DNA of 20,639 bases. Source: Myxococcota bacterium (GTDB lineage Bacteria > Myxococcota > JACRCW01). The stretch covers positions 1-20,639 of the forward strand of contig JBFMGU010000190.1 in NCBI GenBank assembly GCA_040752415.1. The letters run 5' to 3'. The notes under the pieces were generated by a model. It was not told where the DNA came from. It made no database searches and worked only from the letters and a program-made list of their open reading frames with translations. The translations under genes were made by a program, and so were the position numbers. Of the stretch, positions 1,756-20,639 are shown one piece after another (the first letter of the stretch is position 1; the number at the start of each line of letters is the position of its first letter).

Positions 1756-1841
1756 GGAGCTGGACGGCGCCGGATGCTGATCGGGAGTACATCCTGGAAA
1801 ATGCCCTCTCGACGAAGTCCTTGCCGGCGCCTTCCAGCTCC
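1756..1841 (+). ncRNA. Putative Ro60-associated (Y-RNA-like) structured RNA, unit 1
   Basis: Outer stem GGAGCTGGA-c-GGCGCCGG / CCGGCGCC-t-TCCAGCTCC; loop ATGCTGA; inner stem TCGGGAG/CTCTCGA; TACAT 1788-1792; CCTTG 1819-1823. Confidence 0.7.
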
Positions 1842-1906
1842 CGGGTCGCATGCTGAACGGGAGTACATTTCCAATGTGTCCCTCTCGTCGACACCTTGGC
1901 GACCCG
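1842..1906 (+). ncRNA. Putative Ro60-associated (Y-RNA-like) structured RNA, unit 2
   Basis: Outer stem CGGGTCGC/GCGACCCG; ATGCTGA; inner stem ACGGGAG/CTCTCGT (compensatory T-A to A-T versus unit 1); TACAT 1864-1868; CCTTG 1894-1898. Confidence 0.7.
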
Positions 1907-1922
1907 CACTTTCTTCAACGGT

Positions 1923-2022
1923 GTTGCAGGGGCGGCAGATGCCGCGGGAACTACATGGGATCCGGAAGTGCTCGCGAGAGCGCCGGAGTTGTTTCCGCCC
2001 CCCTTGTTGCCGCCCCTGCAGC
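1923..2022 (+). ncRNA. Putative Ro60-associated (Y-RNA-like) structured RNA, unit 3
   Basis: 16-bp outer stem GTTGCAGGGGCGGCAG/TTGCCGCCCCTGCAGC; ATGCC; inner stem GCGGGAAC/GTTTCCGC; TACAT 1952-1956; apical hairpin GTGCTC-GCGA-GAGCGC (GNRA loop); CCTTG 2002-2006. Confidence 0.7.
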
Positions 2023-2035
2023 TTCCTCTTCGTCT

Positions 2036-2098
2036 GGCAGATGCCCGCGGAATCCTCCGCCGCCCCCGGCCATGAGACCTCCGCACCCGTTTGCTGCC
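2036..2098 (+). ncRNA. Degenerate fourth unit of the structured RNA array
   Basis: GGCAG/CTGCC stem, ATGCCC, GCGGA/TCCGC stem, 3' GTTTG instead of CCTTG; TACAT absent. Confidence 0.4.
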
Positions 2099-2835: not shown

Positions 2836-4443
2836 TCACGCGCCCCTGCCGGTGACCTCGCGCCAGTCCAGGTCAAAGCGCGCCAGGTACTTCCGCAGGC
2901 GGTCCGCGTCATTGGTGGACTTCTTGAGCCCGCGGGAGTGCGCGAACAGCACCCGCCCCGCTTCAGACAGGTTGCGCGCCTCCGCGCACACGCTCAGCAC
3001 TTCCGCCAGCTGCGCGCGGTCAAACCGGTCCAGCTGCGCCGCACGACCCGGTCCCAGCACACGGGTGACCTCGTCGGCGCCGTCATTCGTGGCGGGAGCA
3101 CGACGCCACAGCTGCTTGAGGCGGTCCATCTCCTCCTCCACCACGTCGACGTTGATGCGACCGCCCGGCGCCAGCGTGGCCATGCGCGTCACCGCGGAGC
3201 TGAAGTCGCGGAAGTTGCCGGCCCACGCCGCGGACTTGCTGGTGGCGAACTTCAGGAACTTCTCCCGCGCCTCACGACTGAAGGTGATGTGCGTCCCCAT
3301 GCGTCGCCCCACCTCCGCCAGCTCGAACTCCAGGTTCGGCTCGACGTCCTCCGGGCGCTCGCGCAGCCCGGGGAGCTGGAAGGTCCAGAGGTTGATGCGC
3401 GAGAGCAGGTCCTCGCGGAAGCGCCCCTCGGACACGGCCGTCTGCAGGTCGCGGTTGGTGCCGGCAATCAGCTGGAACTCCACGTGCGTCTCACGGTCGG
3501 AGCCCATGGGCAGGAACACCTTCTCCTCGATGGCGCGCAGCAGCATGGCCTGCTCGTCCGCGCCCAGCTCGCCAATCTCGTCGAGGAAGAGCACCCCGCC
3601 GTGCGCCTTCTTGAGCAGACCGGGCCGGTCCCCCACCGCGCCGGTGAAGGCACCGCGCACGTGGCCAAACAGCGTGCTCATGGCTCCGTCGCCGCGCAGC
3701 GTGGCGCAGTTGACGTCGACGAATTCACCCTTCACCTGTCGGCGCGCCTTCTTCAGGTCGTGGATGCGTCGCGCCAGGTGGCTCTTGCCGGCGCCCGTGG
3801 GACCCATGAGCAGGATGGGCGCGGGAGAGCTGATGGCCACACGCTCAATGCGTTCGATGAGCCGGTTGAACGCCGCATTGCGCGTCTCGATGCCACCCTT
3901 GAGAAAGCTCAGCCCCTCCTTCTGCTCCTGCCGGAAGCGACTGGCGAGGCGGTCATACTTCGAGAGGTCCAGGTCGATGATGCTGTAGGTGCCCACGCCG
4001 TTGGGCTGTTCCTTCGTCGGGGGAGAGGTCTGGATGAGTCGCGCGGGGAAGTAGCGCGCCTCCGTCAGGAGGAACATGCAGATCTGCGCAATGTGCGTCC
4101 CCGTGGTGATGTGGATGAGATAGTCCTCCTTCTCCGGCTGGAAGTTGTAGCCGCGCGCAAAGTCGTGGAGCGCCGCGTAGACCACCTCCAGGTCCCACGG
4201 GTTCTCCATCTCCAGGTGCGAGGAGCGGACCGCCGTCTCCGGAGAGACCTGGCGGATGTCCGACGTCACCGTGTCCGCGAGCGCGGTGAAGCGCGGCTGG
4301 AAGAGCAGCTCCAGGCGGTGGACCAGCAGGTCCTCGTGCTGACAGAGCGCCACGGTGGGACGCCACCGCTCCCAACGGGCAGGCCCCTTCCCCGCGTCCA
4401 GGGTGGGCCCCAACAGGCTGATGACGACGGTCTTGCGCGACAT
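2836..4443 (-). CDS. rtcR: RNA repair transcriptional activator RtcR (CARF domain + sigma54 AAA+ domain + HTH)
   Basis: 535 aa; RWERWRPTVALC and HITTGTH N-terminal motifs, Walker A GPTGAGKS, GAFTGA, Walker B LFLDEIGE, FREDL, WAGNFRD, C-terminal NDADRLRKYL; divergent from rtcB. Confidence 0.96.
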   Translation of the reverse strand: MSRKTVVISLLGPTLDAGKGPARWERWRPTVALCQHEDLLVHRLELLFQPRFTALADTVTSDIRQVSPETAVRSSHLEMENPWDLEVVYAALHDFARGYNFQPEKEDYLIHITTGTHIAQICMFLLTEARYFPARLIQTSPPTKEQPNGVGTYSIIDLDLSKYDRLASRFRQEQKEGLSFLKGGIETRNAAFNRLIERIERVAISSPAPILLMGPTGAGKSHLARRIHDLKKARRQVKGEFVDVNCATLRGDGAMSTLFGHVRGAFTGAVGDRPGLLKKAHGGVLFLDEIGELGADEQAMLLRAIEEKVFLPMGSDRETHVEFQLIAGTNRDLQTAVSEGRFREDLLSRINLWTFQLPGLRERPEDVEPNLEFELAEVGRRMGTHITFSREAREKFLKFATSKSAAWAGNFRDFSSAVTRMATLAPGGRINVDVVEEEMDRLKQLWRRAPATNDGADEVTRVLGPGRAAQLDRFDRAQLAEVLSVCAEARNLSEAGRVLFAHSRGLKKSTNDADRLRKYLARFDLDWREVTGRGA

Positions 4444-4476
4444 AGATGACCGTCTAGCATGTTATCCCACGGGATA
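4443..4476. promoter_or_regulatory. Putative RtcR binding sites upstream of rtcB
   Basis: Perfect palindrome TATCCC-AC-GGGATA (4463-4476) plus variant palindrome TAGA-N6-TCTA (4443-4456) 20 bp upstream, touching the rtcR start codon. Confidence 0.7.
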
Positions 4477-4518
4477 CACCGGGCTCCGCCCTCCGCTCTC
4501 CGCCGAGGGCGACGCGCC

Positions 4519-4537
4519 CTGGCACGGCCCCTGCTCC
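4519..4537 (+). promoter_or_regulatory. sigma54 (-24/-12) promoter of rtcBA
   Basis: CTGGCACG-gccc-CTGCTCC; GG(4521-4522)-N10-GC(4533-4534). Confidence 0.88.
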
Positions 4538-4574: not shown

Positions 4575-5804
4575 ATGGAAACCCGCACCCACGAGATCAT
4601 CCACGTTGAAGGCGGAGCGCCCATCAAGGCCTGGACCCGCGGCGTCCCCGTGGAGGCGGAGGCCACCGAGCAGCTCAAGCGCATTGCCCGCATGCCGTTC
4701 ATCCACAAGTGGGTGGCGGTGATGCCGGACGTGCACGTGGGCAAGGGCGCCACGGTGGGAAGCGTGGTGGCCACCACGGGCGCGGTCATCCCGGCGGCGG
4801 TGGGCGTCGACATCGGCTGCGGAATGATGGCGGTGCGCACCTCGCTCACGGCGAGCAACCTGCCCGACAACCTGGCGGCGTTGCGCGCGGCGATCGAGAA
4901 GGCGGTGCCGCACGGTCGCACCGACAACGGTGGTCGCAATGACCGCGGCGCGTGGAAGCGTCCGCCCCAGGCGCACCAGGACGCGTGGCTGCGTTTGAAG
5001 GCGCGCTACGACGTCATCGTCGGAAAGCACCCGCGCATTGGCCGCGGTCCGGACCTCGAGCACCTGGGAACGCTGGGAACCGGCAACCACTTCATCGAGC
5101 TCTGCCTCGACGAGTCGCAGGGTGTCTGGTTGATGCTGCACAGCGGTTCGCGCGGGGTGGGTAACCGCGTGGGCTCGTTCTTCATTGAGCTGGCCAAGCA
5201 GGACATGCGCCGCTGGTTCATCAACCTGCCGGACGCGGATCTCGCGTATCTCCCCGAGGGAACCGAGCACTTCGCGGACTACGTGGAGGCGTTGGAGTGG
5301 GCGCAGGACTACGCGGCCCAGAACCGTGAGCTCATGATGCACAGCGTGGTTGCGGCGCTGCAGGCTTCTTCGCAGCTGCCCGCGTTCACTGCCGACCTCA
5401 CCGTGGTGAACTGCCACCACAACTACATGGCGCGCGAGTCCCACCACGGGAAGAACGTGCTCGTGACCCGCAAGGGCGCGGTGCGCGCTCGCGAGGGCGA
5501 CCTGGGTATCATCCCCGGCTCCATGGGCGCGAAGTCCTTCATTGTGCGTGGGCGTGGAAATGAGGAGAGCTTCCACTCCTGCAGCCACGGCGCGGGTCGG
5601 AAGATGAGCCGCACCGCGGCCCGCAAGGCGTTCACGCTGGAGGACCACGCGCAGGCCACCGCGGGAATCGAGTGTCGCAAGGACGCCGACGTGATCGACG
5701 AGACGCCCGCGGCGTACAAGTCGATTGAGGATGTGATGGAAGCGCAGGCGGACCTGGTGGAGATTGTGCATACGCTCAAGCAGGTCCTGTGCGTGAAGGG
5801 ATGA
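4575..5804 (+). CDS. rtcB: RNA 2',3'-cyclic phosphate/3'-phosphate-5'-OH ligase RtcB
   Basis: 409 aa; MPDVH.GKG, VGVDIGCG, LGTLGTGNHF, HSGSRG, HHNY, RKGA, PGSMG, SCSHGAGR, DETPAAYK; SD GAGGAG. Confidence 0.97.
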   Translation: METRTHEIIHVEGGAPIKAWTRGVPVEAEATEQLKRIARMPFIHKWVAVMPDVHVGKGATVGSVVATTGAVIPAAVGVDIGCGMMAVRTSLTASNLPDNLAALRAAIEKAVPHGRTDNGGRNDRGAWKRPPQAHQDAWLRLKARYDVIVGKHPRIGRGPDLEHLGTLGTGNHFIELCLDESQGVWLMLHSGSRGVGNRVGSFFIELAKQDMRRWFINLPDADLAYLPEGTEHFADYVEALEWAQDYAAQNRELMMHSVVAALQASSQLPAFTADLTVVNCHHNYMARESHHGKNVLVTRKGAVRAREGDLGIIPGSMGAKSFIVRGRGNEESFHSCSHGAGRKMSRTAARKAFTLEDHAQATAGIECRKDADVIDETPAAYKSIEDVMEAQADLVEIVHTLKQVLCVKG

Positions 5805-5807
5805 GTC

Positions 5808-6839
5808 ATGATCTCCATCGACGGCTCGGAAGGTGAAGGTGGTGGACAGGTGCTGCGCACGGCGCTGGCGCTCTCGCTGGTCACCGGGAAGGCGTTCCAG
5901 GTGGTCAATGTGCGCGCCCGTCGTGCGCGGCCCGGTCTCATGCGCCAGCACCTCACCGCCGTGCAGGCGGCCGCGGAGGTGGGCCACGCGCGCGTCGTTG
6001 GCGACACCGTGGGTTCGCGCGAGCTCAGCTTCGAGCCGGGCCCGGTGACGTCGGGGGAGTGGACGTTCTCCGTGGGAACCGCGGGCAGCGCCACGCTGGT
6101 CCTGCAGACGATCCTGCCCGCGCTCCTCACCGCCGACGGTCCATCCAAGCTCCTCATGGAAGGCGGCACGCACAACCCGCTGGCTCCGCCGTTTGAGTTC
6201 CTCACCGACGCGTTCCTGCCGCTCGTGGGACGGATGGGGCCGTGCGTGGAGGCCACGTTGCAGACGCGCGGGTTCTATCCCGCCGGTGGCGGCCGGTTCT
6301 CCGTCGTGGTGCAGCCGGTGCGCGCGCTGCAACCGTTCTTCCTGCGCGGACGCGGGAACCTGGTGAAGCGGGGAATCACCGTGCTGGTCTCCCAGCTCCC
6401 TCGTCACGTGGCCGAGCGGGAGACCCAGCTCCTGCGCGAGCTCCTGGGCTGGGAGGAGCACGAGCTCCGCATCGAGTCGGTGCGCAACTCGCCGGGCCCG
6501 GGCAACGTGCTGCTCGCGCGCCTGGAGTACGAGAACGTCACCGAGGTGGTGTGCGCGTTTGGTGAGAAGGGCGTGCGCGCGGAGGTCGTGGCGGAGAAGT
6601 TGGCGAGCGACGTTCGCGCCTACGTCGACGCGGGCGCCCCCGTGGGTGAGCACCTGGCCGACCAGCTCATGCTGCCGTTGGCCCTGGCGGGCGGCGGTGG
6701 CTTCCGCACGCGCACGCTCACCATGCATGCCAAGACGCAGGCGGAGCTCATTCCGCGTTTCCTCGACGTGCGCGTCAAGACCACGCCCGTGGAGGGTGGC
6801 CTGGTGGATGTGGAAGTGGTGCGCTGCGAAGTGCGCTAA
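5808..6839 (+). CDS. rtcA: RNA 3'-terminal phosphate cyclase RtcA
   Basis: 343 aa; DGSEGEGGGQVLR, R.RPGL..QH, GGTHNPLAPP, RGFYPAGGG, EHLADQL (adenylated His). Confidence 0.96.
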   Translation: MISIDGSEGEGGGQVLRTALALSLVTGKAFQVVNVRARRARPGLMRQHLTAVQAAAEVGHARVVGDTVGSRELSFEPGPVTSGEWTFSVGTAGSATLVLQTILPALLTADGPSKLLMEGGTHNPLAPPFEFLTDAFLPLVGRMGPCVEATLQTRGFYPAGGGRFSVVVQPVRALQPFFLRGRGNLVKRGITVLVSQLPRHVAERETQLLRELLGWEEHELRIESVRNSPGPGNVLLARLEYENVTEVVCAFGEKGVRAEVVAEKLASDVRAYVDAGAPVGEHLADQLMLPLALAGGGGFRTRTLTMHAKTQAELIPRFLDVRVKTTPVEGGLVDVEVVRCEVR

Positions 6840-6875
6840 ATGCGCCGAAGGGTTTCGGTTGTCGCCGTGAAAGCG

Positions 6876-20509: not shown

Positions 20510-20551
20510 GTGAGCAATCTGCCCAATTCGTTGTGGCCGGCGAACACCTAA
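20510..20551 (+). CDS. Candidate 13-aa small ORF (MSNLPNSLWPANT)
   Basis: AAGGAG (20498-20503) 6 nt before GTG 20510; stop TAA 20549-20551. Confidence 0.3.
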   Translation: MSNLPNSLWPANT

Positions 20552-20581
20552 CCCCCCCCGTTCAAGCCGTCCTGCTCGCTC

Positions 20582-20635
20582 GCCCCCCTTCCCCAGTACC
20601 AATTTCCCGTCGTCACCGAGCCGGGGAAGGGGGGC
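20582..20635. repeat. Perfect 13-bp inverted repeat
   Basis: GCCCCCCTTCCCC (20582-20594) / GGGGAAGGGGGGC (20623-20635), 28-nt loop. Confidence 0.75.
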
Positions 20636-20639
20636 AATC

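Follow-up and report, generated by a model that had tools for sequence, protein, structure and literature searches.

What kind of gene is the tandem array of hairpins that directly follows the Ro60 gene (rsr) of this Myxococcota bacterium, and what would its products do next to genes for RNA repair? We analyzed the whole stretch of 20,639 nucleotides (the window), for which a first-pass annotation had proposed a new class of Y RNAs, together with the 11-Mb genome and a collection of related loci.

The array and its neighborhood

The features on which the argument rests are listed here; R1 is the family model described in the next section.

67-80 and 87-100, upstream of rsr: two TATC-N6-GATA palindromes, putative RtcR enhancer sites
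144-158, + strand: sigma54-type -24/-12 element (TGGCAC-N5-CTGC) before rsr
197-1750, + strand: rsr, Ro60/TROVE protein of 517 aa (Pfam vWA_Ro60 and TROVE)
1756-1841, + strand: unit 1, candidate YrlB-type Y RNA (Rfam YrlB 28.4 bits; R1 49.9 bits, E 7e-9 genome-wide)
1842-1906, + strand: unit 2, candidate YrlB-type Y RNA (Rfam YrlB 25.2 bits; R1 44.0 bits)
1923-2022, + strand: unit 3, same predicted Ro-binding module with another apical domain (Rfam YrlA 27.4 bits, module only; R1 44.2 bits)
About 2034-2100, + strand: unit 4, degenerate copy with a weak fold (R1 18.3 bits, E 0.005 in the window)
2110-2832, - strand: DUF2071 gene (Pfam PF09844), convergent, ending 10 to 12 nt past unit 4
2836-4443, - strand: rtcR, sigma54 activator with a CARF-type sensor (NCBIfam NF038308, above cut-off)
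4463-4534, + strand: TATC-N6-GATA box (4463-4476) and sigma54-type element (4520-4534) before rtcB
4575-5804, + strand: rtcB, RNA ligase, divergent from rtcR (Pfam PF01139)
5808-6839, + strand: rtcA, RNA 3'-phosphate cyclase (NCBIfam TIGR03399, above cut-off)
G000:C213:167-393 (L026), another contig of this genome: canonical YrlA before a GNAT gene (Rfam 69.0 bits, equal to the threshold)

The rsr product matched the structure of Deinococcus radiodurans Rsr (2nvo, E 2e-25). Its basic residues K141, R142, and K177 are kept and, under the numbering offset that we infer, align with three of the four residues named for Ro60-Yrl2 binding in a phage. The rsr stop codon occupies 1748-1750, and unit 1 begins 5 nt downstream on the same strand, within the 4 kb of rsr that serve as a Y RNA criterion.

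Units 1 to 3 lie where the first-pass annotation had placed them (1756-1841, 1842-1906, and 1923-2022), and the layout it described, with ATGC, an inner stem, TACAT, CCTTG, and an outer stem, held for each. In unit 1, these parts are AUGC at 1774-1777, the inner stem at 1781-1787/1806-1812, UACAU at 1788-1792, and CUUG at 1820-1823; in unit 2, they are AUGC at 1850-1853, the inner stem at 1857-1863/1882-1888, and CUUG at 1895-1898. Both units are long hairpins that end in a small apical loop and lack a tRNA elbow. The apical domain of unit 3 is longer and consists of a stem, a 3-nt bulge, a second stem, and a GCGA (GNRA-type) tetraloop, without an anticodon-like loop. Its start and fold are common to the related loci L007, L008, and L010; beyond these, only 1 of 301 genomes carried it, and this one was already known, while the four matches in viral sequences all lacked the flanking module. 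A long stem made of the paired 5' and 3' ends together with a large internal loop, within about 65 to 130 nt, is present in units 1 to 3 and weak in unit 4. Folding z-scores were -5.7, -2.6, -5.4, and -1.6 for units 1 to 4, and 11 of 200 shuffles of unit 4 folded equally well. Unit 4 keeps the outer stem, AUGC, and UUUG (TTTG) and is 81% like unit 3 over 16 nt; its lack of TACA, its 18.3 bits, and its fold justify the earlier label of a degenerate copy.

A coding reading of the array was rejected, as its four overlapping ORFs had no Pfam match and a third-position GC of 0.56 to 0.69, versus 0.92 in rsr. No sigma70 promoter was found inside 1600-2300, and the Y-RNA-type genes are probably co-transcribed with rsr. 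A weak terminator-like site at 2006-2022 coincides with the end of unit 3, and unit 4 is therefore perhaps not transcribed.

Two further observations concern the window. Directly past the rtcA stop, 6833-6868 contains ATGC and a Yrl-like 3' end; its score is only 6.9 bits (E 6), and it may be a vestige or a chance match. The window closes with a repeat (about 20530-20639) that matched many dozens of the genome's contigs.

A conserved module and its family

We collected 60 Rsr loci, the window being one of them. A descriptor search returned 137 units in 48 of the 60 loci, 129 of them on the rsr strand, and removal of duplicates and of nine hits judged false left 120 units. An inner stem was no requirement of the descriptor, yet it reached at least 6 bp in 97/120 units, compared to 20% when 3' halves were swapped. 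At one position of this stem, a G-U pair is kept in 75 of the 97 units. This bears on the strand, for which the first-pass annotation had cited G-U pairs that work only on the plus strand: homology and the conserved G-U pair place the units on that strand, whereas folding energy alone is undecisive, minus-strand folding being about equal for units 1 and 2 (z -5.8 and -2.4).

When the two strands of the internal loop were left free in turn, AUG was found in 133/134 units and YUNG in 131/155. On this basis, the conserved core is an AUGC/YUYG internal loop flanked on both sides by covarying stems. The 3' strand has been called poorly conserved in the passages that treat it (PMC4201824; 10.1101/312249), yet it is visible in the Rfam consensus. 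The published 5' motif, GNCGAAN0-1G, is absent from the window units, which read GCCGGAUG, GUCGCAUG, and GGCAGAUG. This motif is too narrow, because in its strict form only 41 of the 120 relatives satisfy it, the changed bases stay paired, and AUG is near-invariant. The pairs beside AUGC in the window units (GG/CC, GC/GC, and AG/UU) are compensatory variants. A unit can be described as a Yrl module (outer stem, AUGC/YUYG loop, inner stem with G-U, and UACA) carrying a swappable apical part.

Thirty-one short units, chosen by hand and all from outside the window, served to build model R1. In its alignment, pairing holds in 92.9% of cells, and each of the 15 pairs shows changes on both sides; for the outer helix this is circular, since that helix had been selected for. 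Over the 11-Mb genome, R1 found only units 1, 3, and 2 (E 7e-9, 2e-7, and 3e-7; 150 of 1,154 candidates scored); as in all genome searches with R1, only part of the candidates was scored, and weak copies may have been missed. Two of 61 relatives matched, both with a close Rsr and one of them a training source, and the third TROVE carrier among these relatives (29% identity) gave no match. In a sample of 141 genomes, the three that matched were exactly those with an Rsr at 54 to 58% identity; in the two new ones, the match lay 24 nt before and 39 nt after rsr, respectively, and the six genomes of the sample with only distant TROVE proteins had none. Twelve of a further 150 genomes matched, 11 of them new, and in 10 of these 11 rsr was within the 3 kb that had been fetched. 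In 10 training-source genomes, every match was at the rsr locus, and the Rsr locus of phage Mx1 (48% identity) had no R1 match. The short form thus tracked the close Rsr clade in three genome samples and is spread far beyond Salmonella. This clade comprises at least 8,000 clusters at E 1e-50, from several phyla.

These searches agree with the first-pass annotation in that the units are linked to TROVE genes rather than scattered over the genome, and a REP/BIME-type repeat was rejected on the same grounds, as no dispersed copies were found among the candidates scored and matches are linked to rsr. The hairpins could nevertheless be imagined as a cis element of the rsr mRNA (a stabilizer, or a terminator against the convergent DUF2071 gene) or as a REP-like repeat, given that the array starts 5 nt past the rsr stop, that it contains the terminator-like site at 2006-2022, and that the genome holds many dispersed repeats. 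We regard this as very improbable: no other copies of the array were found genome-wide, relatives occur ahead of rsr, in a divergently oriented cluster, or among tRNA genes, and the homologous YrlB is an RNA bound by Rsr (PMC4201824). Unit 4 may nevertheless be such an element.

Several related loci hold larger sets. In L024 (G034:C16), four Yrl units are located upstream of rsr; they are encoded on the other strand, and the interval that separates them from it holds a TATC/GATA-type box. Five units lie between rsr and the next gene in Rhizobium etli CIAT 652 pA (L080:4610-5281) and four in the same position on a Methylosinus OB3b plasmid (L081:4572-5117); one of these nine passes the Rfam threshold, and both hosts can be cultured. 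Two unverified enteric records contain, after YrlB and YrlA and before rtcB, a third Yrl unit that has just a T arm (L078:924-1037 and L082:1077-1190).

To which family do the window units belong? Rfam matches coincided exactly with units 1 to 3, all below the gathering thresholds, which are 97 bits for YrlB (RF02565) and 69 bits for YrlA (RF02553). Units 1 and 2 scored 28.4 and 25.2 bits with YrlB and are filed here as YrlB-like, not as Rfam members; unit 3 scored 27.4 bits with YrlA, the T-arm/D-arm domain being deleted in the alignment. The Rfam YrlB consensus contains AUGCU..GAUUACAU..AUG..UUUG, and TACAT, previously seen as an additional element of the array, is not one, as UACAU already belongs to that consensus. 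Furthermore, a genuine YrlB (Rfam 105.5 bits; unverified enteric record), located 13 nt behind an Rsr fragment to which the window Rsr is 55% identical, scored 54.7 bits with R1, compared to 44 to 50 bits for the window units; neither it nor the window units were among the training sequences.

What survives of the proposed new Y RNA class is that these are Y-RNA-type genes linked to Rsr loci; as a class it fell, a genuine YrlB scoring alike on the same model. As judged from sequence, units 1 to 3 and YrlB are one family, and the array is a variant of it and not a new class. The scores below Rfam gathering and the unmatched 5' motif could be read as signs of a categorically new RNA class, unrelated to YrlA and YrlB, but this is hardly credible, as a single model catches the window units, the genuine YrlB, and YrlA modules, and TACAT is present in YrlB. 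The units are, on this comparison, very probably Y RNAs bound by Rsr, and the array can, with reasonable likelihood, be read as YrlB-type Y RNA genes in polycistronic arrangement.

The closest known counterpart is YrlB of Salmonella Typhimurium (RF02565), which is bound by Rsr and, as described in PMC4201824, is likewise the first RNA past the rsr stop in an RtcR/rtcBA context. The array shares with it the outer stem, AUGC, the inner stem, UACAU, a CAU/AUG apical stem with a small loop, YUUG, and the lack of a T or D arm. Unlike YrlB, the array is far below the Rfam threshold, GG/CC, GC/GC, and AG/UU replace the GA/UC beside AUGC, two short units and a third type stand in tandem, and the loops resemble Ser and Gly anticodon loops. 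With YrlA (RF02553), the window units have in common the Ro-binding module including the YUAY element, as far as that module is described (PMC4201824; 10.1101/312249). YrlA differs in its T-arm/D-arm elbow and, in the Salmonella RNA as described there, in having no anticodon loop, whereas the window units have no elbow and two of them show an anticodon-like loop. Hairpin Y RNAs without the full tRNA module have already been described, and in two other species, Y RNAs are cut from polycistronic precursors (both PMC4201824). Several Y RNAs per locus are also reported for D. radiodurans (Yrn1 and Yrn2), Mycobacterium smegmatis (YrlB) (PMC4201824), and a Thermus phage (Yrl1 and Yrl2) (PMC12135203); polycistronic precursors and long small-loop hairpins are, in these accounts, common to them and the array, although their Rsr proteins belong to distant clades (24 to 29% identity range).

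Anticodon-like apical loops

Anticodon loops follow the 7-nt consensus Y-U-N-N-N-R-H. The 8-nt apical loop of unit 1 holds CUGGAAA (1794-1800), which is the anticodon loop of the host tRNA-Ser(GGA), plus one extra C; it contains the exact 7-mer inside a longer loop. In unit 2, an ACA/UGU stem closes the 7-nt loop UUUCCAA (1868-1874), which fits the consensus on a 3-bp stem and is Gly UCC-like, one base off the loop CUUCCAA of the host tRNA-Gly(UCC). The loop stems of units 1 and 2 have 3 to 4 bp rather than 5, and neither is shared with the host tRNA, which argues against a fresh tRNA copy. The earlier description of the array as non-tRNA-like consequently needs dividing: the window holds no tRNA and, as had been stated for the array, there is no GTTCRA in 1751-2110, but the apical loops do resemble anticodon loops.

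Among the related units, 136 distinct apical inserts were obtained (73 T-arm, 39 short, and 24 other) and compared to real anticodon loops. The latter came from 314 tRNAs that ARAGORN identified in this genome and in the loci, and they numbered 156, of which 55 occurred two or more times. In the null model, stems were fixed and only loops were shuffled, in 2,000 rounds. By the rule used, 32 of the 39 short units had a hairpin and 7 had none. An exact real anticodon loop was present in 13 of these 32, versus 1.4 expected (maximum 7 in 2,000 rounds); with the stricter loop set, the figures were 9/32 and 0.6, and for the Y-U-N-N-N-R-H pattern 19/32 and 5.8. The 13 exact loops carry 11 different anticodons. 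The other 19 of the 32 are not exact anticodon loops, and neither is the loop of the enteric YrlB.

Eleven genomes fetched afterwards served as a held-out set, in which 7 of 10 short units had a hairpin. The pattern fitted 6/7 loops (null 1.7, p 0.0006) and 3/7 were exact (null 0.33, p 0.003), p-values that kinship among the units makes too small; with the strict set, the result was 1/7 (p 0.06), not significant in this small set. The T-arm units of the first set also showed exact loops (7, versus 0.8 expected), but the held-out Planctomycete-group genomes had 0/17, and the idea that anticodon loops are general in T-arm (YrlA-type) units was dropped.

Could the loop be a stable U-turn or a tRNA relic only, the triplet being irrelevant and the RNAs gating the Rsr cavity or tethering PNPase like D. 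radiodurans Yrn1? Gate and tether are the sole roles shown for bacterial Y RNAs in the portions of the literature at hand (PMC4201824; 10.1101/312249), the phage Yrl1 and Yrl2 form PNPase complexes (PMC12135203), and an origin of Yrl RNAs from tRNA genes is assumed (10.1101/312249). In addition, many Rsr loci lie in tRNA arrays and many loops are imperfect. Against this stand the 11 different real anticodons on one conserved non-tRNA stem and the related units of L019, L056, and L058, which switch the loop (Trp, Gly, and Ser) while keeping the frame. We consider a triplet-independent loop rather unlikely and lean, with some reserve, toward selection of the apical loop as an anticodon mimic. 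No prior description of anticodon loops in YrlB-type RNAs was found in the literature searched, Sim and Wolin 2018 and Chen 2013 lying outside it.

Other inserts were seen in the related loci. The "V arm" of some YrlA-type units is a mini-hairpin whose loop equals a real anticodon loop (Asp, Leu, Thr, Tyr, Asn, or Trp; L017:6749 and 7232, L018:4995, L021:6900, L014:6850, L019:6838, and L080:4880). A two-hairpin subtype combines a tetraloop hairpin with a preceding stem of 4 to 6 bp that bears a 7-nt anticodon-like loop, the triplet differing among paralogues and orthologues (L003:6776 and 7190, L002:3335, L022:7127, L006:3202, and L037:5241). In a third form, the insert of the Yrl module opens with about 25 to 29 nt identical to Escherichia coli 23S rRNA, a stretch that we take to be the helix 69-70 region (L004:2281-2470, L037:4651-4854, and L089-L093 in G612, G602, G617, G637, and G589, with a degenerate copy in L037). 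This form occurred in 6 of 401 genomes of one order, three of them with near-identical elements, inside tRNA arrays and with rsr nearby in 5 of the 6; one viral scan gave a single chance match inside an ORF and another none.

A predicted split regulon and possible uses of the loops

The promoter elements were named after what we take to be the sigma54 -24/-12 consensus. TATC-N6-GATA occurs at seven sites in the genome, four of which lie upstream of rsr (two), rtcB, and the YrlA on contig C213. Of the seven boxes, only these four are followed by a sigma54-type element, of which the genome has 331. In the related loci, the box is found upstream of rsr in 6 of 25 with rtcR, 2 of 22 without, and none of 47 control stretches; for the sigma54 element, the counts are 12/25, 2/22, and 0/47. 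The box is a putative RtcR site; no sequence of an RtcR binding site was found in the accessible text of the literature searched. The Salmonella rsr promoter is described as dependent on sigma54 and RtcR (PMC9879122), and we regard co-induction by RtcR and sigma54 as quite probable here.

The rsr and YrlA genes are on separate contigs, both starting near these genes; no end overlap of the rsr contig with the YrlA contig or with the contig carrying an array of 24 tRNA genes was found. A YrlA apart from rsr is a layout that the within-4-kb filter of the 2014 survey could miss. The 24-tRNA array lies at G000:C471:45565-47816 and a smaller one at C479:223-2509, neither with a link to the rsr contig, and the rsr genes of several relatives sit in tRNA arrays.

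In Salmonella, tRNAs cut in the anticodon loop yield halves with a cyclic phosphate that act through RtcR on the sigma54-dependent rsr-yrlBA-rtcBA operon, as reported in PMC7790460 and PMC9879122. The same five gene types and a sigma54-type promoter are present here. Unlike the Salmonella operon, they would form three transcription units (rsr with the array, rtcBA, and YrlA alone), and a DUF2071 gene separates the array from rtcR. What Rsr and the Y RNAs contribute to the repair operon was, by their own statement, not addressed by Hughes et al. (PMC7790460).

A working model would run as follows. Halves of tRNAs with a 2',3'-cyclic phosphate would activate RtcR, a step known from Salmonella, and RtcR would fire three sigma54 promoters, those of rsr with the array, of rtcBA, and of the separate YrlA. 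The array transcript would be cut into units, each of which Rsr would protect by binding to its AUGC/YUYG loop. On their 3- to 4-bp stems, units 1 and 2 would expose anticodon loops like those of tRNA-Ser(GGA) and tRNA-Gly(UCC), unit 3 may recruit or mimic something else, and unit 4 may be decaying. The likeliest use of the loops of units 1 and 2 would be as baits that draw anticodon nucleases off real tRNAs while RtcA and RtcB repair these. Such a decoy use, which we suggest only tentatively, would agree with the response of the operon to anticodon-loop cleavage and with the competitive inhibition of a nuclease that has been proposed for YrlA (PMC7790460).

The loops could also act as sensors, in that a nicked, Rsr-protected 5' piece with a cyclic phosphate would activate RtcR in a positive feedback or be a substrate of RtcA/RtcB. 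The units do stand within an RtcR-controlled unit beside rtcBA, and RtcR binds 5' tRNA halves that end in the anticodon loop, according to the binding data presented in PMC7790460. In those data, RtcR binds some halves better than others, and a short hairpin may not suffice; moreover, these RNAs would be made only once RtcR is already on. Such sensing is improbable in our view.

Baits remain the use that we favor, and the finding reaches beyond this locus. What is new is the likeness of the apical loops of short units to anticodon loops; of value besides are the broad occurrence of the short form, a better-defined module, and a regulon divided over several predicted transcription units. The short form accompanies a large Rsr clade across several phyla, whereas YrlB had been found by BLAST in S. 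enterica only, within the survey described in PMC4201824. The conserved part is redefined as the AUGC/YUYG internal loop with covarying flanks, and the exposed loop would mimic the place in tRNAs at which cleavage triggers induction of the operon. It is conceivable, though doubtful, that YrlB-type RNAs form a widespread, stress-induced library of Ro60-protected anticodon stem-loops whose exchangeable anticodons are tuned in each lineage to the tRNAs attacked by toxins or defense nucleases, as decoys or as sensors for RtcR/RtcAB. If so, the Yrl module would be a general display scaffold whose cargo could be an anticodon loop, a segment of 23S rRNA, or the elbow of a tRNA, and Y RNAs would become anti-nuclease baits or signal amplifiers.
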